From IMG/VR virus record IMGVR_UViG_3300035498_000530, positions 128,001 through 192,000 of that record: a stretch of DNA of 64,000 nucleotides; one strand, 5' to 3'. Shown piece by piece: positions 26,468 to 64,000 of the stretch. Each line of letters begins with the position of its first letter. The first letter of the stretch is position 1. The translations under genes were made by a program, and so were the position numbers. Under the pieces are notes generated by a model, which saw only the letters and a list, made by a program, of their open reading frames with translations, was not told the DNA's origin and searched no databases. The stretch is from a virus. Its lineage: Duplodnaviria > Caudoviricetes.

Positions 26468-28183
26468 TTATTTATCTAATCCATATACATTATGCAACGG
26501 TGTCTCAAGAATAAACTGATTAGCCGTAAACATTACTGTTACAATTTCTCCAATAGCTCCAAGTATTGTAGCATCTGACTCGATAGATGACAATACTTTT
26601 TGGTCATATTCTTTTGTAATCATATTATATGGAGTTGGTGATTCCAAAAGAGTTTCAAATTCTTTGTCATTAAGTTTCTCTTTACTATAAAGAACCTTGA
26701 TAAGTTCTTCATATGAATTGAGAATAATAGAAGCAATTTCAACATCAAGAATACACTTTTCAGTATTAAGATCTGTTGTATACTTTCTATTGATATCTCT
26801 GAAACATCTATAACCTTCGAAGTTTGCACCATAGCCTACACCATTAGCTGCTGCAGACCTACAGTTAAGTACAGCATCTTCTACTGCTGCTCTAAGACTA
26901 TCTCTATCGCTAGTAGCAATACCACCGATAAGATACTCTACCATATTTGCCTTAAGAGAATTAATTCTTCTCTTAAGATTACCAGTTACATTAGCATCCT
27001 GACCATCTCTCTTAGCCTTTTCCAATTCAGCCTCAAGGAATGTAATAATGGACTTAAATGTATCTGACTTTGAACCATCTTCATTATACATGAATTTAGG
27101 GTTAATAATCTTTGTAGTATATGCATCTGATACTACTTCATCAGCAGTACCGTAGAAGTCTACTACATTACTCAAGTCAGGAGCAAGACCTTTCTGAATG
27201 TCCATTTCCTGAATTTTTGGATCAAGATATTTCTTGATTACTTTACCACCACAAAGCTGTGCGATATCAGATAACTGATCACCATCATAGATATTGCTTA
27301 TAATCAATATAGGTGGCTTATTAGCAGGATCAATTTTATAAATCCAAATAGCAAGATCTTTCATGATATTACTCATATCTGGAGAGATCTTTGGAGCCAT
27401 AATAACTGTAGGAACTACTGTTTCATAAGTACCATCATTATATGGCTTAATGATATTATTACCAATAATAGTATCGAACAATGCTGCCATATTAGGAGTA
27501 TCAATAGGATCCTCAAAGATATATATTCTTGGAGCTCTTATTGTAGCTGTACCCTCTTTGATATCATTAATACACCATGTATCTACATAGCCAGTTTCAA
27601 TAGTCATACCATCATAAATTTTGAGCTGGCTTGTTTCTGAAGTTGAAACTGATACATCAATAAATACATCCAAACCGAATTCATTGTAGATATCTGATAT
27701 TTCTTTAGCTACTTCTACATTATTATTTGTAGCAATAAGAGCTATATTATAGATATCTTCCATTGTAGCTTGTCTTCCATCACTTCTGATGAGTTCCTGA
27801 GCTTCTTCAATTACTTTCTTAAATGAAGAAATAATCTCAGATGATGTATAATTCTTAGAATCCAATTCTGTAAGATTCTTAAATATATTAGCTGAAAGAA
27901 TAACAGCTGATGTTGTACCATCACCAACCGTCTTTACGATATGTCTTGTGATGTTTTCAATATCATCTTTGATAGCTCTTTCAAGCTGATTCTGAAAATA
28001 AATATGAGATAAAATAGTATGACCATCCTTAGTATAGATGGTTTCCATCTTGTCTTTTGTAATTCCAGTAAATGAACCATATGGTCCAAATGAAGAAGCC
28101 AGTACCTCACTAAGTTTATCTAATGTAGCTTCCTGAACTGGTCTTAAGTTGTTTTTTGTTACCACGTTTGTTACCAATGCCAT
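26468..28183 (-). CDS. Phage GroEL-like chaperonin
   Basis: SFGPYG, TKDGHTIL, VGDGTTSA, VEDAVLNCRSA. Confidence 0.93.
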   Translation of the reverse strand: MALVTNVVTKNNLRPVQEATLDKLSEVLASSFGPYGSFTGITKDKMETIYTKDGHTILSHIYFQNQLERAIKDDIENITRHIVKTVGDGTTSAVILSANIFKNLTELDSKNYTSSEIISSFKKVIEEAQELIRSDGRQATMEDIYNIALIATNNNVEVAKEISDIYNEFGLDVFIDVSVSTSETSQLKIYDGMTIETGYVDTWCINDIKEGTATIRAPRIYIFEDPIDTPNMAALFDTIIGNNIIKPYNDGTYETVVPTVIMAPKISPDMSNIMKDLAIWIYKIDPANKPPILIISNIYDGDQLSDIAQLCGGKVIKKYLDPKIQEMDIQKGLAPDLSNVVDFYGTADEVVSDAYTTKIINPKFMYNEDGSKSDTFKSIITFLEAELEKAKRDGQDANVTGNLKRRINSLKANMVEYLIGGIATSDRDSLRAAVEDAVLNCRSAAANGVGYGANFEGYRCFRDINRKYTTDLNTEKCILDVEIASIILNSYEELIKVLYSKEKLNDKEFETLLESPTPYNMITKEYDQKVLSSIESDATILGAIGEIVTVMFTANQFILETPLHNVYGLDK

Positions 28184-31279: not shown

Positions 31280-33208
31280 TTAACCGTCAACTTCGTCATC
31301 AGCTACTACATCTTCCCAAGGTCTCTTAGGACCGCCTGTAGCAATTGCTGCTTCAACAGCTTTTCTTGTTGTTTCATCAAGGTTAGCTGTGTAGTCGTTC
31401 ATAGCTGGCTTACCAATAGGATCATCATTAACAAAGTCTTCTCTGTAGCCCATTGGGTTAAGAATTCTAAGACGACCCTGAACTGGCTGGTACTCTACAA
31501 ACTTCCAACGCTCAAATGCATGAATAGCTGGAAGAGCATAGTTAGCCATGTTTCTAATTTCATTAGAAACGTACATCTGATAATCATAGATTCTGTAGAT
31601 AATTCTCTCTGAATTTCTTGGGCAGAGGATGATTATCAAGTTGTTATCGTTTGTGAGCTTATCACTTGAGATGAACTGATATACTCTGTTGCCATCTGTT
31701 GTGATAGTTCTTGTGAAGTTAAGCTGAAGAGGTCCAATGTTGCTTGGTGAGCTATATACTGGATCTGTAGGCTTAATCTTTCTGATAAGGTCAGGACGAC
31801 CAATGATATTGATTGTCATGTTAGGATCTCTGATAACCTGAAGAAGGTAAGATACATGAGTATCAAGAGCATCCATGAATGTCTTGTATCTCCACTCTAC
31901 ATGGTCAAGAGCATAGCCTTCACGAGGTGCGAAGTCAAATGCCTTAGCGATCTTCTCTGAATCAGAAATAGTAAGGAAGCTCTCATCAAGATTTTCCTTA
32001 ATCTTATCATCCTTGTAGTTACCAAGAGTGATATTAAACAGACTCATAAGCTTAGTAAGCTGATTGATCTGATAAAGTGCACCAATATCCTTAACTTCTT
32101 CAGGAGATACTGGTGTATTGATTGGGATTGCTGGTGGGATCTCAACGAGATCTGTCTTTACTGACCAAGCAACCTGGCATGTCTTAAGCATAGCAGATGA
32201 GGTATCGATCTTAGCTGAGATCTTAACCATAGATACACCTGCAACTGTAACATCCTTTGTAGCACCTGAAACTGTGTTCTTTGTTACTGTAGAACCAGCT
32301 TCACCGATTGCTGCCATAATTGTAATCTTATTCTTCTTCATATAACCAGAAAGAATATCATGTACCTGAGTACCATCAGGGAATGTAACATCAACAGGTT
32401 CCATAAGCTGACGATCAATGTCACCATAACCCATTGTGAAGTTCTTCTTTACATTCTTCCAAACGATTACATCTGTTTCGCCGCCTGTAGCTACCTTATC
32501 TGTCTTAGTTGACTCATCATAGTAAAGGTCACCAGCTACAGCAGTCTTCTTAACACCAACTGCACTAATATATGTAGAGATGTCAAGGTTATCATCTGCA
32601 CCTGCACCCATAAGTTCGATTACATTAAGATCAACCTGAGGTGTAGCGAGAGAAACTGGAATATCAACATATGGAGCTGTAGAATCAATAAGATCCTTCA
32701 TCTTCAACTGATCTTTCCACATATCTACTTCTTCACCATTAGGACCAATGAGAGTTCTTGTCTCCATTGAGATAGTGAACTTAGGAGAAGTAGCTACAAA
32801 CTTAGGAATAGCCTTGTCAAAGATTGTGTCCATAAGAATTCTCTTATGAATAGGGAATGTCATACCAACAACTGGGTTATAAGCAGCCATTGGTGCATAT
32901 TCAAGTATAGCTTCCTTATCATTAAGGAACTGCTCGTGCATCATTTCAATATGATCATCAAGAGCTCTTGCGTCACCCATGAATGATTCTGGATCGCATG
33001 AGTTTTCAACAAAGAAGTTCTCCATTGCAGCAGATGCTGATTTCTGTCTTAAAGCTTTCTGTGGCTCAAGAAACATATCTACAGCATTTTCTGTAAGGAT
33101 ATTCTGAGCAAGATTTGAGAATGCCGCAGCATATTCTCTAATAGGATCATTTCTATATCCTTCGCCAATTCTGGCGTTCTTATTAGGTCTTTCACCAATA
33201 ATAGGCAT
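31280..33208 (-). CDS. Major capsid protein precursor
   Basis: Strong codon bias and elevated GC; late promoter; ILE-Y site near residue 103; size typical of jumbo phage MCP. Confidence 0.8.
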   Translation of the reverse strand: MPIIGERPNKNARIGEGYRNDPIREYAAAFSNLAQNILTENAVDMFLEPQKALRQKSASAAMENFFVENSCDPESFMGDARALDDHIEMMHEQFLNDKEAILEYAPMAAYNPVVGMTFPIHKRILMDTIFDKAIPKFVATSPKFTISMETRTLIGPNGEEVDMWKDQLKMKDLIDSTAPYVDIPVSLATPQVDLNVIELMGAGADDNLDISTYISAVGVKKTAVAGDLYYDESTKTDKVATGGETDVIVWKNVKKNFTMGYGDIDRQLMEPVDVTFPDGTQVHDILSGYMKKNKITIMAAIGEAGSTVTKNTVSGATKDVTVAGVSMVKISAKIDTSSAMLKTCQVAWSVKTDLVEIPPAIPINTPVSPEEVKDIGALYQINQLTKLMSLFNITLGNYKDDKIKENLDESFLTISDSEKIAKAFDFAPREGYALDHVEWRYKTFMDALDTHVSYLLQVIRDPNMTINIIGRPDLIRKIKPTDPVYSSPSNIGPLQLNFTRTITTDGNRVYQFISSDKLTNDNNLIIILCPRNSERIIYRIYDYQMYVSNEIRNMANYALPAIHAFERWKFVEYQPVQGRLRILNPMGYREDFVNDDPIGKPAMNDYTANLDETTRKAVEAAIATGGPKRPWEDVVADDEVDG

Positions 33209-33362: not shown

Positions 33363-36300
33363 TTATTCATCTGGGGCTTCATCTTTATCTGTTTTTGTTT
33401 CTGGGTTTTCTTCGTCAGATTCAAAGGCAGCACCAAGCTCTTCAAGTATAGAATTTATACTATTCAATGCAGCTAAACATTCCTGATACGTAATAGTATT
33501 CTCTATAAATGTCTTATTATCAAAATTATGAAGCATATTATAACTAATAAGCTCTTTAAGTTCTGTTATCTTACGACTCAAGAAATCCAATACAGTTTGA
33601 GTATTACTATTTCTTGGAACTTTATTGATATCATCAGACAATCTAAGAACTGTTTCATATAAATCCATATAGTCTCTTTTGAGTCTATATTTCTTTTCCT
33701 TCATTTGTTCTGGATCTATGTCACTGAAAAGTTCTTTTTCTATATTCTTGATTTCGTCACTAAGACTTCCTTCTTCTCCCTCTTCACCGTCTTCAGGGAT
33801 TTCTCCTTCTGTATCATCTCCACCATCTGGATTTTCTTCATCAGAGTCTAATGGTTCGTCTCCACCACCAGTATCTCCTCCACCATCTCCAGTAGGAATT
33901 TCACCAGAAGTATCACCGCCAGTTTCATCAGAATCCAAAGGCTCATCACCTGCATCTCCTTCGTCACTATCAAGTGGTTCGTCTCCACCTTCATCTGAAT
34001 CTAATGACTCATTATCTCCACCGGCATCATCAGTTGGCTCATCCATAGGCTCGTCTCCAGCATCGTCTGTAGGTTCATCCATTGGTTCATCTGAACCACC
34101 ATCTGATGAACCACCTCCACCGGAACCTCCGGCTGTATAGCTACCATCTGGATCTGTTCCAAATCCATCATTAGTATCTTTATTAGCGTCATCAGCTACA
34201 GGATCATTATTCTTAACTTCTATTTCATTAAGAATATTATATTCCTCTTCTTTAGTAAAGAAGAATCCACCAGTTTCATGAGCATAATCAGAAGAATATT
34301 CAGATTTATCTTCTTCATCAGTACAATTATCGCAAGTCTTAAGCTGATCTAAATAATAAGATCTAAATGAATTATTAGTATCAGCAATTCTTAATATCTC
34401 ATCTGCACTTATATCAAATTTGTTTATAGCATCATATATATTCTCTGATGTAAATTTGATATTATCATTCTTTATGATATTAAAGTTCTTTATAGTATCT
34501 AAGACTCCTTCTTTGGAATCTAAAGACATAGTATTCGTATGAGGATCAGCATATTTATTTTCATTTATTCCATTCAATATATCTCTTTCTTGAGCTTTGG
34601 AGAAGAATAAACCCATGTGATCAACTCCTTCCTTTTTAACTTTAGAGTTCTTTTTAGAATCGATCTTCTTCTTAATAGGATCGTTTTCTACATTACTCTT
34701 AACTCTATCTTTTGCTATAGATAATCTATTCTTTGCTATATCTTTTCCTTTGGATACAGCATCTTTGATATTACTTACATTTCTTTCAATATTATCAAAT
34801 AGCTTTGGTCTACTTTCATTATTATCTTCAGTAGATTCATTCACATTTTCATTATCTATATTTATCATTTTATATCTCCTTGAACCGATACCAAGTTTGT
34901 GAGCATATTCTAATATATGAGTGCCATTACGAGTTTCTATTCTTTCTATTACATCTTTACCGTCTTCGGCAGAATATACCAAATCAACACAAGCTTGATC
35001 TAATGCTACTGGATCTAAAGATGCAAGAATTCCTATATCTTTCATCGTAGGTTCCTCTGGATGAGAACTGCAATCACAATCTACCGACATATTATTCATT
35101 ACATTTATAAATAATATTCTTCCTTCTTTAGCTGAGCATACTGATTGGGCAGCTTCAGCCATAGATTCTAAGAAAGGTATTTGTTCTCCACCTTTCCAAG
35201 TTCTTTTACTTCTTCCTGCAGTATGTATTAATCTCTTTCCTACTTGGGAAGCAAATCCGATAGAGATATTTTTCAATGCTCCACCGAATCCTCCCATAGC
35301 ATGTCCTTTAAAGTGAGATAATATAAGGAATGAATCATAAGACTGAAATGTTTCTCCAACAAAGTTTTCAGTAAGATGATTTCCTCCTGTTACAGGTAAA
35401 GATATTTGACCATCTGAATCCATAATATCGACGTCAGCAATATCTAAGAATCCATGATCTTGTATTACTTTTATATGCTCTTGTGTAGTATTTCGTTTTC
35501 CTTCGTAGGCAGTATTGCATTCGCATATTATACCATTGACTTCATCTACAACAAGTTTAATTAATTCTGGTTTCAAATAATTATTATTACCAGCTTCTCC
35601 AGTAGATAACTTAACACCTACTCTACCAGATATACATCCATTGTTAGATATCTTAAATATCTTTAATAGTGATTCTGGAGAAATATTTGATGTAAAGTAT
35701 ACTACCGAATCATCAAATCCAGAATTAGGAATATTTCTTACTGATGATAATCTTTCATAATAGGAGTCATCCTTAGGAAACTTATCATCAAAACTTTCTT
35801 TTATAGCTTTAGGCCCTTTCCAATACCTCTTAAAATCATTCTTTTCTCCAACATGAATATCAAGTTGTTCTTCTTTATCAAAGTAGTATTCTATTTTCTT
35901 TATGATATTATTAGCTAATTCTTTTCTATCTTCTTCGTCGCAATAGTTAAAGAATCTTATAGCTTGTAATACATGTTCTTTATCATTCAAAGGATACTTT
36001 CTCTTCTTAGGAAGACCAAATTCTTTATCTGATAATCCTTTACGATCTTTAGAAGATAAAGCTTCTTCATTTATAGTTCCATAACTCATAAATATCATAG
36101 TATCTGTTTGATCATATTCCTTCCATCCAGTTTTGTTATATAAATTTATAGCAGGAGTATTATTCTTTCTTACAGATAATTTTATAGTTTTTAGATCATT
36201 AATTGCTATCTGAAGTAACTTTGTTCCTATTCCTTTGTGTTTCATATTATCAGCTACTTCTAAAGCTTGAATCCAAATACCATCACTTTTCTTTTCTGTA

Positions 36301-37106
36301 TTGATTAATCCAACAAATTCATTATTAGAATTTATATATAAATACCCTTTAGTATTGGAATTTACTCTAATATGCCTAAGCATTTTGAATTTGCTTTTAT
36401 AGATATCAATAGTTTTTTCATCAAGATTAAGTCTTTTAAAATCATTAATATTACTAGATTCATAAATTGAGTCTTCTGGAACACATGGCAAATCATTATT
36501 AAAAATAGCGTTAGGTTCTATATTACTCTTTGGTTTTCCGAATAGATTTCTATTACTTATTCTTTTTTCCATATAAGTCATATATTCTGCTCCATTCATA
36601 CCATACAATTTATTATCTAATGCATTATATTCTATTAAGAAGCTTTTAGTAATCCTACTTCCAGCATCCTTATTTAAATTGTATATGATGTAATTTAAAG
36701 CATCTTTTTCTGTATTGAATTCATATACTCCTCGTTTAGGTTTCCAAGAAGATTCAAACCAATAAAATTTATTACCATACTTGAATACAATGAATGTATG
36801 TGTTGGTGTACTACCATCAGTATCTACTCCAATATGATAATATGATTTAAACTTTATATCTGGAAAATTTCTTTTAAAGTAATATGCTTCATATGTTACA
36901 TAATCCCAACATACTCCTCCTTTATATTTATTAAACTCCTGAGGACTAAGCATTCTATAATAATTATCAAAATCTTCACGTTTAATTTCAATAATAGGAT
37001 TACCATTATTAGGAATTATATATTCATACATATTTAACTCTTGGTTAAATCTTATGATTTCTTCTAGGCTAGTTTTACTATTAGCCTCATTAAAAAATAT
37101 ACCCAT
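33363..37106 (-). CDS. Polyprotein: transglutaminase/papain-like, GNAT, DUF6582-like and DUF362 domains plus acidic scaffold-like C-terminus
   Basis: GGVCWDY/THTF/WFESSW; KHKGIGTKLL/NTPAINLYNKTGW; EFGLPKKRKYPLNDKEHV; VKLSTGE/HFKGHAMGGFGGALKN/DIGILASLDPVALDQAC. Confidence 0.8.
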   Translation of the reverse strand: MGIFFNEANSKTSLEEIIRFNQELNMYEYIIPNNGNPIIEIKREDFDNYYRMLSPQEFNKYKGGVCWDYVTYEAYYFKRNFPDIKFKSYYHIGVDTDGSTPTHTFIVFKYGNKFYWFESSWKPKRGVYEFNTEKDALNYIIYNLNKDAGSRITKSFLIEYNALDNKLYGMNGAEYMTYMEKRISNRNLFGKPKSNIEPNAIFNNDLPCVPEDSIYESSNINDFKRLNLDEKTIDIYKSKFKMLRHIRVNSNTKGYLYINSNNEFVGLINTEKKSDGIWIQALEVADNMKHKGIGTKLLQIAINDLKTIKLSVRKNNTPAINLYNKTGWKEYDQTDTMIFMSYGTINEEALSSKDRKGLSDKEFGLPKKRKYPLNDKEHVLQAIRFFNYCDEEDRKELANNIIKKIEYYFDKEEQLDIHVGEKNDFKRYWKGPKAIKESFDDKFPKDDSYYERLSSVRNIPNSGFDDSVVYFTSNISPESLLKIFKISNNGCISGRVGVKLSTGEAGNNNYLKPELIKLVVDEVNGIICECNTAYEGKRNTTQEHIKVIQDHGFLDIADVDIMDSDGQISLPVTGGNHLTENFVGETFQSYDSFLILSHFKGHAMGGFGGALKNISIGFASQVGKRLIHTAGRSKRTWKGGEQIPFLESMAEAAQSVCSAKEGRILFINVMNNMSVDCDCSSHPEEPTMKDIGILASLDPVALDQACVDLVYSAEDGKDVIERIETRNGTHILEYAHKLGIGSRRYKMINIDNENVNESTEDNNESRPKLFDNIERNVSNIKDAVSKGKDIAKNRLSIAKDRVKSNVENDPIKKKIDSKKNSKVKKEGVDHMGLFFSKAQERDILNGINENKYADPHTNTMSLDSKEGVLDTIKNFNIIKNDNIKFTSENIYDAINKFDISADEILRIADTNNSFRSYYLDQLKTCDNCTDEEDKSEYSSDYAHETGGFFFTKEEEYNILNEIEVKNNDPVADDANKDTNDGFGTDPDGSYTAGGSGGGGSSDGGSDEPMDEPTDDAGDEPMDEPTDDAGGDNESLDSDEGGDEPLDSDEGDAGDEPLDSDETGGDTSGEIPTGDGGGDTGGGDEPLDSDEENPDGGDDTEGEIPEDGEEGEEGSLSDEIKNIEKELFSDIDPEQMKEKKYRLKRDYMDLYETVLRLSDDINKVPRNSNTQTVLDFLSRKITELKELISYNMLHNFDNKTFIENTITYQECLAALNSINSILEELGAAFESDEENPETKTDKDEAPDE
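33820..34100 (-). repeat. Coding tandem repeats (DEPMDEPTDDAG x2; GDE(P/S)LDSDE-like x4)
   Basis: Seen in translation. Confidence 0.8.
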
Positions 37107-37146
37107 ATTATTTCCTCCTTAAATATATTTAGAGTATAATATGTAA

Positions 37147-39513
37147 TTAATTTTTCATTGTGGTAGTTTGTTTTCCTAAGTCTGCTGTTCTTGTTGCTGC
37201 AGACTGGCCCCATTCTACTTTCATCTTATATCTTATTCTCTGATGCTGTCTTTGTAATGCTCTTTGAGTCATATACAAATTCTTTAAAGCTTTCATATCA
37301 TCTTTATCTTCAGCCATTTTAATCTGCTTTTCACAAAGATTTAATTCTACTTCAATTTCATCTAAAATAAGCTGTCTTTCTTTTGCTTGAGATGTTTTAG
37401 CACAAGCAATAGCACCAATAACACCTACAACAGCAATTACTGGATTTACTAACCATGCTGCACCTGTTGCTAATCCCCAATGGATAACTTTAGATGCACT
37501 AGGAATCAATTGTCCTTTAATAACCGCTTCTCTATTTCCTTTCTGCATTGCACGTTCTGCAGAAGAAATAACTGTATTTACTGAAGCATCCACTTGTCTT
37601 GATAATATTTTATCTTTATCAGCAAGACTCTGTATTCCTCGCTTGAGATTCTCAGAAGCAAGTTTAAGAGAGTTAGTAATACTAAGTTCATTTACATAAG
37701 TAGTATTAGTAATATTCTCTATTACATTATATCTCAAGTCAAGATCATTTATAACAGATTCTGTTGTACAAGAACAAGTACTCTTTTTATTACATTTACT
37801 ATGTTCCAAGTCCCAGATACAAGTATTTAATACACTCTTTGAATAGAAATCTGTACTTTCTGCATCTTTCAATTCTTTAAGTCTACTAGAGAATACTTTA
37901 TTCAATGATTCCGGATTGATTATCTCTGGTTTATTTATAGATATAGTAGTAAGAACTTCTGCTACATTATTACCAAAACCAGTAGATATTTTTGATGCTT
38001 GATTTGCTAAAGTTATATCAATAAAATTATCATCAAGATCTATCATTCTATTGATACTTTCTTCTATACATAATACAGACTTAAGATGCTCTATTAATGA
38101 TTCATCTAAGTCTTCATCATCGTCATCATCCACAAGATTAAGATTATAATCATAATCTTCAAATTTATATACAGCATCTTCAAGAGACTTCTTATATTCT
38201 TCTGCTCTCTTGATAGCTTTTTCATCACTTAATTTATCTATCTTCTTTTCTACTTTTTCTATTTCTTTATTATATTCAGATATCAGCTTCTTCATCTGCT
38301 TACGCTCCAAGGTAAGCTTCAATGTGAAATCTGCACATAATGCTATGAATCCTGGAATAAGACCAAAAGAAAAAGCACCAATTATCATCAATCCTCTGAG
38401 AAGACCAAGAAAATTTGGAATACCATCAATAATATCCTGAGGGTCTTTGGTATATATCTTATATATAAGAGACTTCATAGCTGCCGGAGTCTTCTTGGGA
38501 AGCATCTTGAATTCATCAATAAGCTTATCTACACTATTACCTATCTTGGCTTTCATATCGTCATTCTCAAGTATAGAATTAATGAAATTATCACTAAGAT
38601 CTGTAATACCATAACTCATAAGCTCATTAATAGCATCATTAGAAGTATTATATTCTGACTCGAAGATATACAAACTATTTATTTCTTTATCATCATATCC
38701 ATTTACTTTAGACAAAGTAGTTTTAAGATCTTTGATATGATTTTCAGTAAGAGTTTCAGGACTCAGCATAAAATAATCTGTAACAGTTTCAAGTATAGTT
38801 TTTCTATCACAATGTATAGCATTCTTATACAATGTATACTGTATATTCTCCAAAGCAACTTTATACTTAACCCCATAAGGAATATCATAAGTATCAATAA
38901 AGTTACATAAAGTAAATATAGTATCCTTAACATCATAAGAATTTTCCTGCACATACTGATTGAATGAGAATCTCTTATTAAGCTTCTTCTGATTAGAGAT
39001 AACTGTACATATAGCTTCACTTATACTACAAGTATCAAGAATCTTATCAAAGCATTTTTCAATAGATTCACTCTGAGGTTTAGGTTTATTGTTTGATGGT
39101 TGTGGTTGACCAAGGGTTTTAGATGCTGCTGTTTTAGCTTTAGTAATTTCAGCTTTTACTGCAGTACCAATCTTATGTCTATTCATCTGGTCAGTACTCT
39201 TTCCGTTACGAACTTTCTTCGTAGACGGAACAATTTCTTTAGATATTTTGTTTTCAACTTCTTCACACAGATATCTACAAGCTTCTTCTATTCTGTAGAT
39301 ATTTTGAGACTCTTGATTACAAATTTCAATGAATGCATGGACCTGTTCTTGAATCATTGCATTTTTGTTCTTGATCAGATTCAAATAATTAAAATAATTA
39401 TACTGTGGTATGTCTGCTACAGATAAAAAATTTGAATTATTTGTAGCTGATTCTGTTACCATATTGGGTAATGATAATTCTTTTGATAATACGTCTTTCA
39501 TGTTAATTAGCAT
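37147..39513 (-). CDS. Large putative internal virion protein
   Basis: Multiple x-X-E sites; two hydrophobic hairpins each followed by coiled coil; AACT TAATAG TA upstream. Confidence 0.55.
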   Translation of the reverse strand: MLINMKDVLSKELSLPNMVTESATNNSNFLSVADIPQYNYFNYLNLIKNKNAMIQEQVHAFIEICNQESQNIYRIEEACRYLCEEVENKISKEIVPSTKKVRNGKSTDQMNRHKIGTAVKAEITKAKTAASKTLGQPQPSNNKPKPQSESIEKCFDKILDTCSISEAICTVISNQKKLNKRFSFNQYVQENSYDVKDTIFTLCNFIDTYDIPYGVKYKVALENIQYTLYKNAIHCDRKTILETVTDYFMLSPETLTENHIKDLKTTLSKVNGYDDKEINSLYIFESEYNTSNDAINELMSYGITDLSDNFINSILENDDMKAKIGNSVDKLIDEFKMLPKKTPAAMKSLIYKIYTKDPQDIIDGIPNFLGLLRGLMIIGAFSFGLIPGFIALCADFTLKLTLERKQMKKLISEYNKEIEKVEKKIDKLSDEKAIKRAEEYKKSLEDAVYKFEDYDYNLNLVDDDDDEDLDESLIEHLKSVLCIEESINRMIDLDDNFIDITLANQASKISTGFGNNVAEVLTTISINKPEIINPESLNKVFSSRLKELKDAESTDFYSKSVLNTCIWDLEHSKCNKKSTCSCTTESVINDLDLRYNVIENITNTTYVNELSITNSLKLASENLKRGIQSLADKDKILSRQVDASVNTVISSAERAMQKGNREAVIKGQLIPSASKVIHWGLATGAAWLVNPVIAVVGVIGAIACAKTSQAKERQLILDEIEVELNLCEKQIKMAEDKDDMKALKNLYMTQRALQRQHQRIRYKMKVEWGQSAATRTADLGKQTTTMKN

Positions 39514-41903: not shown

Positions 41904-42776
41904 ATGAGCAAAGCAAGTACCCCTATAGGATACATATTACAAGAAGAATCTTCTGTAGTTAAAAATATGAAAATAGTTGCAGAAAGCGGTAGAAGAGTTA
42001 CAGCTGAAGGCATTCTTCAGACAGCAGAAGAATTGAATAGAAATGGAAGATTCTATGAAAGAAAAGAACTTTTCCCAGAATTAACTGGTCCTAGAATAAC
42101 AGAATTACTTAGTACTGGTAATCTTAAAGGTGAAGATGGTCATCCTTCTTCAAAAGAACTTACTAGACAGCAGACTATAGATCCAATGTTTACTTGTGTA
42201 AAGTATCTTAAACTTTGGACCAAAGGTGATGATATCTGGGCTACTTTCAGAGGAGATAATACAGCAAGAGGTGAATACTTCGATCTCGATCTTAGAGATG
42301 GTGATCTTCCATCATTCTCTCTTAGAGCCTTAGGTACTATTGATAATAAAGGTGGTAAGGCTTATGTAAGAAATGTAAGAGTTATCACTTGGGATAGAGT
42401 ATATTATCCATCTCATAAGAGAGCATATACTAAAGGTATTGTATCAGAATCTGGTAGTCTTTTATCTTCTAAACTTGCTGCTCCAAGGGGTGGTATAAAC
42501 GAAAGTGGTATTCTTACTATAGATGGTTCATCTAATCAGTTATATGAAACAGAATCTTCAGGTATTATAGCTCCTGTGACTAATGATTCAGTAATTAATT
42601 ATATTAAGACAGAATCAGCTAATATTCATACTATTATGAATAATTTCGATATTTTCTATGATACTATAAGCCTTACTGAAGACGGTAACTCTATTCAGAT
42701 GGTAGATAAAGCTGGTAATACTATTATAGTAAGTCTTGAGAAATATATATTTGATGAGATTATGAACTATATTTAA
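41904..42776 (+). CDS. Prohead core protease (T4 gp21-like)
   Basis: NRNGRFY, GEDGHP, FSLRALG, TWDRVYYPS. Confidence 0.9.
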   Translation: MSKASTPIGYILQEESSVVKNMKIVAESGRRVTAEGILQTAEELNRNGRFYERKELFPELTGPRITELLSTGNLKGEDGHPSSKELTRQQTIDPMFTCVKYLKLWTKGDDIWATFRGDNTARGEYFDLDLRDGDLPSFSLRALGTIDNKGGKAYVRNVRVITWDRVYYPSHKRAYTKGIVSESGSLLSSKLAAPRGGINESGILTIDGSSNQLYETESSGIIAPVTNDSVINYIKTESANIHTIMNNFDIFYDTISLTEDGNSIQMVDKAGNTIIVSLEKYIFDEIMNYI

Positions 42777-53641: not shown

Positions 53642-54079
53642 ATGGGTTTATTTAATAATACCAAAACTGAAGAAAATATAATGGAAATGGAACTTCAGAA
53701 TCCTAATGAACTTGCTGAAGCCATGATCCTTGACGAACTTTCATTCTTGACAGACGATCAGAAAGAAGAATTCGCTGTATCAGAAGTTTGTACAGAGCTT
53801 ATTGAAGAAGGCCTTCTTAAGAGACAGTCTGTAGTAAGACTTACAAGAAATGATGACCTTTCTAGAAGAATGAAGCTTGCTGCGTTCCAGCTTGCTAAGG
53901 AAAGACAGGATCCACTCTGGTCAATGCTTGTAAAGAACAGAGTAAAAGAAAGAGCTCTTATTGGTAAAATTATGCAGAAATACCGTGGTCAGGCAGGCAA
54001 AGCTGCTAAGGTTTCTCAGAAGACTTATATCAAAGGCAAGTTGCCACTTTCAATGCTTAGACCTACAAAGATGGGCTAA
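53642..54079 (+). CDS. Small abundant virion-like protein (acidic N-half, basic C-half)
   Basis: MGLF N-terminus; IEE-G junction; biased codons; own terminator. Confidence 0.6.
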   Translation: MGLFNNTKTEENIMEMELQNPNELAEAMILDELSFLTDDQKEEFAVSEVCTELIEEGLLKRQSVVRLTRNDDLSRRMKLAAFQLAKERQDPLWSMLVKNRVKERALIGKIMQKYRGQAGKAAKVSQKTYIKGKLPLSMLRPTKMG

Positions 54080-62311: not shown

Positions 62312-64000
62312 ATGTATCCTAGTACGAGATTTTCAATTATAGATAACAGTGCTATAACTACTCCTACTATAACTGATACAAGCCTTTATCAGGTTTTGCA
62401 GATGATTGGCTTTAGTTCAGATCAGGGTCCAGAGAAGTATAACATTGTTTCAGGTAAAAATTTCTTTTCTCTTTATGGTAGCAATATTAGCTTTAAGAAG
62501 CATGGTCAGCCATTGCTTCAGGCTGCTATGGCAATTAATTCAGGTGCAAGACTCTATGCAAAGAGAATTGTAGCAGAAGATTCTGCACTTGCCAATATTG
62601 GTGTAGTTGCAGTTCTTGAAAAGAAAGGCGATGTAATCACTCTTAGATATCAGAAAGCTGTTATTCCTGATGCTAAGGGTACAGAGTATGAAAACTATAA
62701 GAATCATGCTACACTTATTAAGAAAGCATTTAATACATCAGTAGCAAATGTACTTAATAATGGTAATGAGTTTGATGATGATTATTATGATGCTTGCATC
62801 GATAAGACAAATCATACACTCAAGGTTGATGGCCCTGTATACTTCCCACTTTTTGTAATTGCAGAAAATGGTAGAGGTATATCATACAAGTCAATTAAAA
62901 TTATTCCAGATTTCTCTGGTTCTAAATATTATACTTTCATTAAGTATCAGCTTGAGATTAAGAGAGACAATGAAACTCTTCAGACAGTAAACTTTGCTCT
63001 TGATCCTGATACTGTATATGATGGCACAAACCTTTCAGTTGAAAATGCATTTAGATCATCTACTCAGCTTATTTGTAAGCAGAATGCAGATGTAATTAAG
63101 CAGTTTATTAATGCACTTTCAGCTATTCTTGATATCGATGTAGATACACTTAATACATGTGATATTCTTACACTTAGAGATACTAGAAAGCAGTCTCTTA
63201 ATTATAAGAAGGGTGCTAAAGGTAATACAGTTATATATGTTGATAATTCAAATTATTTAACATATAATTTCGATTCAGTAGGCAAAGCTACTAGCGATAA
63301 AACTATATCTGCAGCAGAATTTGATAAAACTGGTAGTAGCACTATTAAATTTGTAACTGGTTATAAATCTTCACATACTGTTGGTGCAGATTGTGAAAAT
63401 GTAGTATCTGTTAAGATTACTAAGATTGCTGGTACTTCATATAGCAATGCTAAATATGCTGATACTACAGCTATTGAACTCGATGCTGCTGCTACTTCTG
63501 GTAATGTTGAAGAGTGGACAGCTAATTTGTCAGACTTTGATACTCTTGATGTTAGTTTGGCTATTACTACACAGGAATATCAGTATACTAAGACTATTAC
63601 AGTAGAAGCTACTTCTGGTACTGTAAAGATTGATCTTGGTGAAATTGATAGTTGGGATGCTAATGATTGGTCACAGGGTACTATTCCTGAAGAAACAGAA
63701 GATACTGCTAGTACTATTAGTCTTCTTTCTGAAGAAGATACAGCAGCAACTACTAAGATCGTTACAGCATATAAAAATAATGATACTAATATCTATTATG
63801 TAATAAATGATGATGGTACAACTACAACTGCATACAATGCAGATGGTACTAAGGCAGATTCAGCCGAAACAAAATCAGCAGATGATGTTACGGATGAATA
63901 CTCATATACAAAATCTGAGTCATTTAGTATTACAGTAGAAACAACAAGTGATACTGTATCAGATGTTACTGATAAGACTACTACTGAAGATAGTACTTCT
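62312..64000 (+). CDS. Tail sheath protein (partial, runs off window)
   Basis: AAGGAGG RBS; MYPSTRFSIIDNS...SDQGPE...FFSLYG...HGQPLLQA...GARLYAKRIV sheath-type N-terminus. Confidence 0.8.
   Translation, partial: MYPSTRFSIIDNSAITTPTITDTSLYQVLQMIGFSSDQGPEKYNIVSGKNFFSLYGSNISFKKHGQPLLQAAMAINSGARLYAKRIVAEDSALANIGVVAVLEKKGDVITLRYQKAVIPDAKGTEYENYKNHATLIKKAFNTSVANVLNNGNEFDDDYYDACIDKTNHTLKVDGPVYFPLFVIAENGRGISYKSIKIIPDFSGSKYYTFIKYQLEIKRDNETLQTVNFALDPDTVYDGTNLSVENAFRSSTQLICKQNADVIKQFINALSAILDIDVDTLNTCDILTLRDTRKQSLNYKKGAKGNTVIYVDNSNYLTYNFDSVGKATSDKTISAAEFDKTGSSTIKFVTGYKSSHTVGADCENVVSVKITKIAGTSYSNAKYADTTAIELDAAATSGNVEEWTANLSDFDTLDVSLAITTQEYQYTKTITVEATSGTVKIDLGEIDSWDANDWSQGTIPEETEDTASTISLLSEEDTAATTKIVTAYKNNDTNIYYVINDDGTTTTAYNADGTKADSAETKSADDVTDEYSYTKSESFSITVETTSDTVSDVTDKTTTEDSTS

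Follow-up and report, generated by a model that had tools for sequence, protein, structure and literature searches.

A strong start signal at a cargo-scaffold junction suggests a nested scaffold gene in an AR9-like jumbo phage

The window analyzed here, i.e. the whole stretch of 64,000 nucleotides that corresponds to bases 128001-192000 of IMGVR_UViG_3300035498_000530, a complete virus record of 222,731 bp that has direct terminal repeats (30% GC content), carries on its minus strand a long open reading frame (ORF), P0001, situated between a portal-sized gene and the gene encoding the major capsid protein (MCP) (Table 1). In GenBank the capsid protein matches only AR9/PBS1-group Bacillus phages, at 21% identity, and in IMG/VR it matches 34 uncultured contigs of 160-290 kb, at 43-56% identity; by these matches the virus would appear to be an AR9-like gut jumbo phage. 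P0001 itself is a derived in-frame fusion, in which ~830 residues of enzyme-like cargo, with their own leader MGIFFNE, have been joined 5' of a scaffold-position gene, i.e. the gene that in related phages directly precedes that of the capsid protein. The junction between the two parts holds a strong Shine-Dalgarno (SD) sequence followed by an in-frame ATG, from which a second, cargo-free protein may well be made.

Within the cargo region Pfam recognizes a weak transglutaminase/papain-like domain (residues 6-75) and the domains GNAT (248-333), DUF6582 (354-394) and DUF362 (496-708), and no Pfam family matches within residues 831-1247. AlphaFold, run on the family alignment, predicts ~165 disordered residues followed by four helices with a predicted local distance difference test score (pLDDT) of about 90. 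A blastn search of the whole gene against GenBank matched solely the DUF362 stretch, in one unannotated record, and tblastn of the 417-aa part following the internal ATG gave no match among GenBank phages.

Table 1. Features of the fusion gene, its surroundings and the other leader-bearing genes (positions in the window)
Feature	Position	Strand	Remarks
Fusion ORF P0001, 1247 aa	33363..37106	-	Leader, cargo domains, leader, small module, leader, acidic tract, helical C-domain
SD of long form, AAGGAGG	37114..37120	-	Duplex -11.1 kcal/mol
Leader copy 1, MGIFFNE, residues 1-7	37086..37106	-	
Cargo region	34983..37085	-	Pfam domains; PHROGs acetyltransferase match
Lys/Asn-rich linker, residues 751-830	34617..34856	-	No family match; holds the internal SD, read as Lys-Lys-Glu-Gly-Val
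Internal SD, AAGGAAGGAG	34625..34634	-	8-nt spacer to ATG
Internal in-frame ATG, Met831	34614..34616	-	Candidate start of 417-aa isoform
Leader copy 2, MGLFFSKAQERDILNGINE, residues 831-849	34560..34616	-	Ends Ile-Asn-Glu
Add-on module, residues 850-945	34272..34559	-	DUF6582-like in P0002/P0101; degenerate in P0001, without Pfam match
Leader copy 3, GGFFFTKEEEYNILNE, residues 946-961	34224..34271	-	Gly in place of Met, no SD (alignment A2; DNA)
Acidic low-complexity tract, residues 962-1112	33771..34223	-	Predicted disordered
Conserved helical C-terminal domain, residues 1113-1247	33366..33770	-	Family-defining part of the scaffold-position protein
Major capsid protein gene	31280..33208	-	Directly downstream of the fusion ORF; phrog_20655; tblastn to AR9/PBS1 major head protein
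Portal-sized gene	37147..39513	-	Directly upstream of the fusion ORF; putative, from size and position only
T4 gp21-type prohead protease (Peptidase_S77)	41904..42776	+	PF03420, 43.8 bits (cut-off 27); phrog_207, 9e-19
GroEL-like chaperonin (Cpn60_TCP1), phage-encoded	26468..28183	-	phrog_5725; ~3 kb downstream of the capsid gene
Leader-bearing protein MGLFSKNDYI..., 423 aa	174..1445	+	
Tandem paralog, leader MGLFSKNDYI, 401 aa	1473..2678	+	
Leader-bearing protein MGLFNNTK..., 145 aa	53642..54079	+	Virion structural PHROG, phrog_26909, 7e-5

An earlier note on this DNA had pointed out that codon 831 of P0001, an ATG at 34616 on the minus strand, is preceded at 8 nt by a strong ribosome-binding site, and this is indeed the case: AAGGAAGGAG lies at 34634..34625, and the sequence upstream of the Met831 codon reads aaaAAGGAAGGAGttgatcacATG, i.e. 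AAGGAAGGAG plus the 8-nt spacer. The ATG is in frame with the start at 37106 and both ORFs end at 33366, sharing their C-terminus. The internal SD pairs with the anti-SD at a duplex energy of -11.7 kcal/mol, the median gene start reaching -10.3, and the Met831 SD ranks third among 1347 internal in-frame ATGs, several of the other top-ranked ones lying within the first 50 codons and looking like mis-set true starts. As the SD sits in an unconserved linker, no protein-level constraint accounts for its presence.

The same note had proposed to check whether relatives encode only the C-terminal part beside the capsid gene, which turned out to be the rule: in 34 of 34 IMG/VR relatives the gene order is portal-sized gene (733-942 aa), a small gene for a stand-alone protein of 195-380 aa, and capsid gene. 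These small proteins are built alike: a short leader at the N-terminus is followed by a long acidic stretch of low complexity and then by a conserved helical domain, which can be aligned with the C-terminal end of P0001 (alignment A2). Most of them start with MGIY, MGIF, MGFF, MGLF, MAIF or MSLF, behind strong SDs. The start M[GAS][ILFVM][FY] is found in 15 of the 547 unique ORFs of the relatives' loci, and all 15 are the scaffold-position gene. The C-terminal helical domain comprises ~130 aa at the very end of the protein, the gene being directly upstream of that of the MCP (alignments A2 and A3; synteny). A profile of this domain, run against 1.84 billion proteins, matched 819 cluster representatives, of which the 150 best-scoring are nearly all stand-alone proteins of 140-450 aa with the domain at the extreme C-terminus, and a leader start is present in 75 of the 146 that begin with Met. 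Searches of the scaffold family against PHROGs, Pfam and PDB sequences returned no named family and no scaffold family. At the level of fold, the C-domain matches AR9 g116 (BFVD E = 5e-4, probability 1.0), an acidic/helical protein of 213 aa (L037:5041-5682) that is annotated as hypothetical; its gene immediately precedes that of the major head protein g117, and its neighbours are labelled virion proteins. Together these features suggest that the C-domain protein is a prohead scaffold or core protein. The label 'prohead core scaffold protein and protease' is given to g114 (L037:3304-4455) in the AR9 record, and the AR9 scaffold assignment may be in need of revisiting.

Besides the start signal, the earlier note had placed the beginning of the ancestral gene at Met831, with the cargo added upstream. 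The latter part holds, in that the cargo is fused onto a gene of the stand-alone type, but the oldest start is Gly946: the copy at this residue ('GGFFFTKEEEYNIL-NE-IEVKNND') aligns column for column with the stand-alone N-termini, which follow the pattern 'MGxFx...[ILF]-x-E-[LI]-x-[VI]-[ND]-G' and then enter the acidic tract. Alignment A2 thereby rules out Met831 as the deepest ancestral start. Met831 is instead the exact counterpart of residue 1 of P0002, a stand-alone protein of 484 aa, encoded on a 14.9-kb contig, that covers 98% of the C-part and consists of a leader, a ~115-aa DUF6582-like module, an internal GGFFF copy and the scaffold; it also aligns with the retained Met456 of P0101. 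Residues 831-945 thus appear to be an earlier add-on module that P0002 and P0101 have in common. The alignment of Gly946 with the stand-alone N-termini and that of Met831 with residue 1 of P0002 point to a two-step history: a leader-bearing small module would have been added first, upon which the old start decayed to Gly and its SD was lost, and in the P0001 lineage 830 residues of cargo and another leader would have followed, this time with SD and ATG left intact. In P0001, P0002 and P0101 alike the older junction (copy 3) has lost Met and SD and has kept the rest of its motif, which implies that the Met is unnecessary for the internal role of the motif.

The homology to true N-termini also determines how the SD should be valued. 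Over 169.6 kb of deep coding sequence only 71 AAGGAG/AGGAGG hexamers occur, and the probability that a strong SD hexamer lies 4-10 nt before one pre-specified ATG is ~0.003. Genome-wide, however, 3 in-frame SD+ATG pairs are seen where ~3 are expected by chance, so that the signal owes its significance solely to its position, on a codon that homology marks as a protein N-terminus. A purine run and an ATG unrelated to any gene start could in principle have met by coincidence at codon 831, the more so since a chance-like case exists in the same gene. At codon 747 (34868 in the window, minus strand) another in-frame ATG follows AAGGAG at a distance of 7 nt (-8.3 kcal/mol); this SD-like run encodes the conserved Gly-Ser-Arg-Arg-Tyr end of DUF362, AAGGAG deriving from the conserved Ser-Arg-Arg codons, the Met is not conserved in homologs, and the pair looks like a product of chance. 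The ATG at codon 831, by contrast, corresponds exactly to residue 1 of P0002 by homology and bears the N-terminal leader of the family, by which coincidence is effectively refuted; we consider the chance that it applies to be very small. Just one other in-frame SD+ATG deep within a gene of this genome is comparably strong; it lies outside the window, in a 436-aa ORF at genome positions 62665-63975 (minus strand; L038:166-1476). The ATG in question, at genome position 63168, is codon 270 ('...YKEGGNKH-MKLNLTRK'); AGAAGGAGG stands before it at a spacing of 8 nt, the duplex energy being -12.6 kcal/mol, and this ORF may be a second nested or fused gene.

P0001 is one of several cargo-scaffold fusions in this family. 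A DUF5131/radical-SAM-like cargo is found in P0101 and P0131 (929 aa) as well as in P0129 and P0130 (716 aa), in some of them along with an extra 213-aa insert; these proteins start with MGLFYTPKNI, and the cargo lies upstream of '...ISEGSQ-MGLFYTKKQEEKIL'. The P0101 cluster has 4 members on 10 contigs in total. In P0142 (444 aa) a leader and a GNAT domain are followed by '...IREGMNN-MGIYSNKATYIQELKIDG', the scaffold part being close to the stand-alone P0004, and further fusions carry a P-loop kinase, DUF6582 plus AAA_18, a zinc finger, or a C-terminal GNAT. These fusions (P0101/P0129, P0142 and others) have arisen independently. In unfused relatives, homologs of the P0001 cargo domains are found in leaderless multidomain ORFs of 1000-1950 aa, tens of kb away. 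Scans for close relatives returned none in IMG/VR (P0101, P0142, P0251), JGI metagenomes or GTDB genomes (alignment A1). All three fusions with a leader-type internal Met have Glu-Gly 3-5 codons before that Met (KKEGVDH, ISEGSQ and IREGMNN), and because Glu-Gly is the in-frame reading of GA(A/G)GG, it can be taken as the protein-level footprint of a retained SD, which would then have been kept at the junctions of the P0101-type and P0142 fusions as well. A different layout is seen in P0145 (616 aa), where the scaffold-type domain lies mid-protein (residues 325-453) with GNAT on its C-terminal side, implying that cargo can be attached at either end.

The recurrence of such fusions bears on the possibility that P0001 represents two genes wrongly joined, a stop codon having been lost by a sequencing or assembly error, with Met831 as an ordinary gene start. 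In its SD, spacing and leader the junction is just like a normal gene start. Nevertheless, the identical 1247-aa protein is present on 4 contigs from two sources, there is no in-frame stop between 37106 and 33366, and similar uninterrupted fusions occur in the P0101 cluster and in P0142; we regard a misjoin as very improbable.

The leaders provide a further common theme. As observed before, P0001 contains three copies of the motif, namely MGIFFNE at residue 1, MGLFFSKAQERDILNGINE at residue 831 and GGFFFTKEEEYNILNE at residue 946 (34271). When all six frames of the 222.7-kb genome were scanned, the pattern [MG]G[ILFV][FY][FY] turned up 3 times in ORFs of at least 150 aa, each time in P0001, and as a gene N-terminus MG[ILF][FY] is found 4 times, against ~0.3 expected. 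The four bearers are P0001, the tandem paralogs at 174 and 1473 and the 145-aa protein at 53642. The two paralogs agree in all of the 22 nt upstream and in their first 10 residues; neither matches a Pfam or PHROG family, and they are candidates for leader-tagged head or internal proteins. Alignment A2 has an [ILF]-x-E column 10-30 residues past the Met, and the leader copies of P0001 end in FNE, INE and LNE. Hydrophobic-x-Glu is the kind of site that is cut by gp21-type proteases, and the gene for such a protease, of the Peptidase_S77 family, is located ~5 kb from the fusion gene. By analogy, the MG(I/L)FF...hydrophobic-x-Glu leader would constitute a T4-style capsid-targeting or propeptide element, and P0001 would be cut into modules inside the prohead by the S77 protease. 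Among the relatives, the multidomain proteins P0011, P0012, P0027, P0029 and P0041 (1100-1600 aa) repeat a linker '(N/D)ESYIEE(S/A)' at their domain boundaries, in place of which other lineages have 'ES(A/T)ILE(G/A/D)'; these linkers look like lineage-specific protease sites in cargo polyproteins without the MGxFF leader.

Given that Met831 is homologous to true N-termini, that the SD before it is intact, that the leader is shared and that a prohead protease gene is present, we propose the following mechanism. The junction would keep the SD and ATG of the scaffold gene, so that the late mRNA offers two start sites: initiation at 37106 would yield the cargo-scaffold fusion of 1247 aa, and initiation at 34616 a cargo-free protein of 417 aa, equivalent to the stand-alone protein of the relatives. 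The shared helical C-domain would build the prohead core, which the long form would enter as a minority passenger, and the S77 protease would cut after the leader Glu, thereby freeing the modules within the head. With SD and ATG intact, two products from one mRNA are to be expected, and we are moderately confident that initiation does take place at Met831 and hence that there are two isoforms. The short form would be made by internal initiation on the same mRNA, since there is no late-promoter-like motif (AACWN6TA) just upstream of 34616; the absence is weak evidence, because shuffled sequence contains the motif more often (158 expected) than the window does (123 observed).

Several observations weigh against internal initiation and the interpretation built on it. 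The scaffold role of the C-domain protein is read from position, composition and the AR9 homolog, and the retention of the SD in the P0101-type and P0142 fusions is read from the Glu-Gly footprint. The SD/start region of P0001 can form a small hairpin with the Phe-Phe-Ser codons, and it is no more open than the gene average (unpaired 0.31 vs 0.45), with a minimum free energy of -11.0 vs -7.4 +/- 3.9 (z = -0.44 vs shuffles). P0002 and P0101 are 77% identical, yet one is unfused and the other fused, and the same applies to P0142 and its close relative P0004; as the fused or unfused state varies among close relatives, the fusions may be young and the SD+ATG merely undecayed. P0145 is fused without a leader-type internal Met, and together with copy 3, which likewise lacks it, this implies that a fully fused scaffold is viable and the short isoform no necessity. 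If the protease separates the modules anyway, the fusion may be nearly neutral.

These points converge on the main alternative, in which the single polyprotein is the sole relevant product and the scaffold is freed only by the S77 protease, at the leader sites after assembly. The SD+ATG would then be a recent neutral relic, left by loss of a stop codon or by insertion of cargo between two adjacent leader-bearing genes, and internal initiation would be negligible. Such a course of events agrees with the alternation of fused and unfused forms in close relatives, by which junctions can be young, with the leader of copy 3, which works or is conserved internally without Met or SD, with P0145, with a start region no more open than the gene average, and with a genome-wide number of in-frame SD+ATG pairs that is the one predicted by chance. 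It is harder to reconcile with the Met plus Glu-Gly footprint kept in three independent fusion lineages and with an SD in an unconserved linker, behind which there is no constraint at the protein level. Moreover, an ATG that has an intact, strong SD at the optimal distance will normally recruit ribosomes in bacteria. We consider the polyprotein as sole product unlikely, albeit an alternative of some weight.

A broader and so far tentative idea, which we would sooner doubt than accept, is that the 5' end of the scaffold-position gene of AR9-like gut jumbo phages is a natural dock for the loading of cargo. In that case the leader would act as a portable tag for capsid targeting and processing, the retained start would be selected to set the ratio of cargo to scaffold, and diverse host-directed enzymes (GNAT, DUF362, radical-SAM-like DUF5131, P-loop kinases) would have been captured repeatedly. 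If true, this would amount to a tunable and evolvable delivery of enzymes into the host along with the DNA.

Two observations concern the rest of the genome. The product of the portal-sized gene found no match in a search of PDB sequences. Outside the window, at genome positions ~93.9-115 kb on the plus strand, there is a single ORF of 7033 codons, with internal ATGs at codons 2139-5354, which is an extraordinarily large gene for a 223-kb phage.

Nested scaffold genes have precedents, in the archaeal virus HFTV1 as gp17/gp17.5, established by ribosome profiling (bioRxiv 10.64898/2026.09.13.751334), and in phage lambda as C/Nu3 (Shaw & Murialdo 1980, as reported in a citing paper). As in lambda C/Nu3, HSV-1 UL26/UL26.5 and HFTV1 gp17/gp17.5, a long and a short in-frame ORF share a C-terminal part in P0001, here the putative scaffold, and the internal start has its own ribosome-binding signal. 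In those systems the long form reaches the procapsid by way of the scaffold domain common to both, the short form being the bulk scaffold, and we propose the same for P0001. The N-terminal part of P0001, however, comprises GNAT, DUF362, DUF6582 and papain-like domains rather than a maturation protease, S77 being encoded by a separate gene; P0001 has no sequence relation to lambda Nu3 or UL26.5, and initiation at its internal start is a prediction. Phage P2 gpO, in which one gene joins an N-terminal enzyme to a C-terminal scaffold and the two are parted by proteolysis (bioRxiv 10.64898/2026.09.13.751334), resembles the build proposed for P0001, and differs from it in that gpO has no internal start and a protease as N-part, whereas P0001 has an internal SD and ATG and a cargo as N-part.

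In T4, proteins are sent to the core by propeptides of 10-20 residues, which are taken off afterwards (PMC5694885). The capsid-targeting sequence (CTS) of IPI-III, Alt and gp24, which is cut by gp21, is paralleled here by a short leader of ~7-30 aa that is common to several proteins of this phage and ends in hydrophobic-x-Glu, with a gp21-family Peptidase_S77 gene nearby; the prediction is likewise that the bearers are packaged into the prohead core and then lose the leader. Leaders of T4 are of the type MKTYQEFIAE. The present one is MG[ILF][FY]..., is carried by the scaffold-position protein itself and is repeated internally at module boundaries, its role being a predicted one. The closest positional equivalent, AR9/PBS1 g116, occupies the same slot upstream of the major head protein and has the acidic tract, the helical C-domain and the match at fold level, its sequence similarity being too low for a tblastn match; unlike P0001 it is unfused and without the MGxFF leader (N-terminus MTDFDTLL, from a GTG start read as Met).

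For giant phages, no confirmed counterpart of the T4 scaffold gp22 was known as of 2017 (PMC5694885). The loading of the many proteins that giant phages hold internally or eject is poorly understood. In this respect the locus offers a large and previously unnamed scaffold-position family (819 clusters), many members of which carry a conserved short leader, as well as naturally recurrent enzyme-cargo fusions and a testable case in which one mRNA may give rise to both scaffold and cargo-scaffold. Both principles are known already, and what is new is the proposed combination of a nested scaffold gene with a CTS-type leader in a large unnamed family. If confirmed, the nested-scaffold principle would extend from the proteases of the lambda-type systems to arbitrary cargo, and would provide a natural design rule for the packaging of foreign proteins in jumbo-phage heads.

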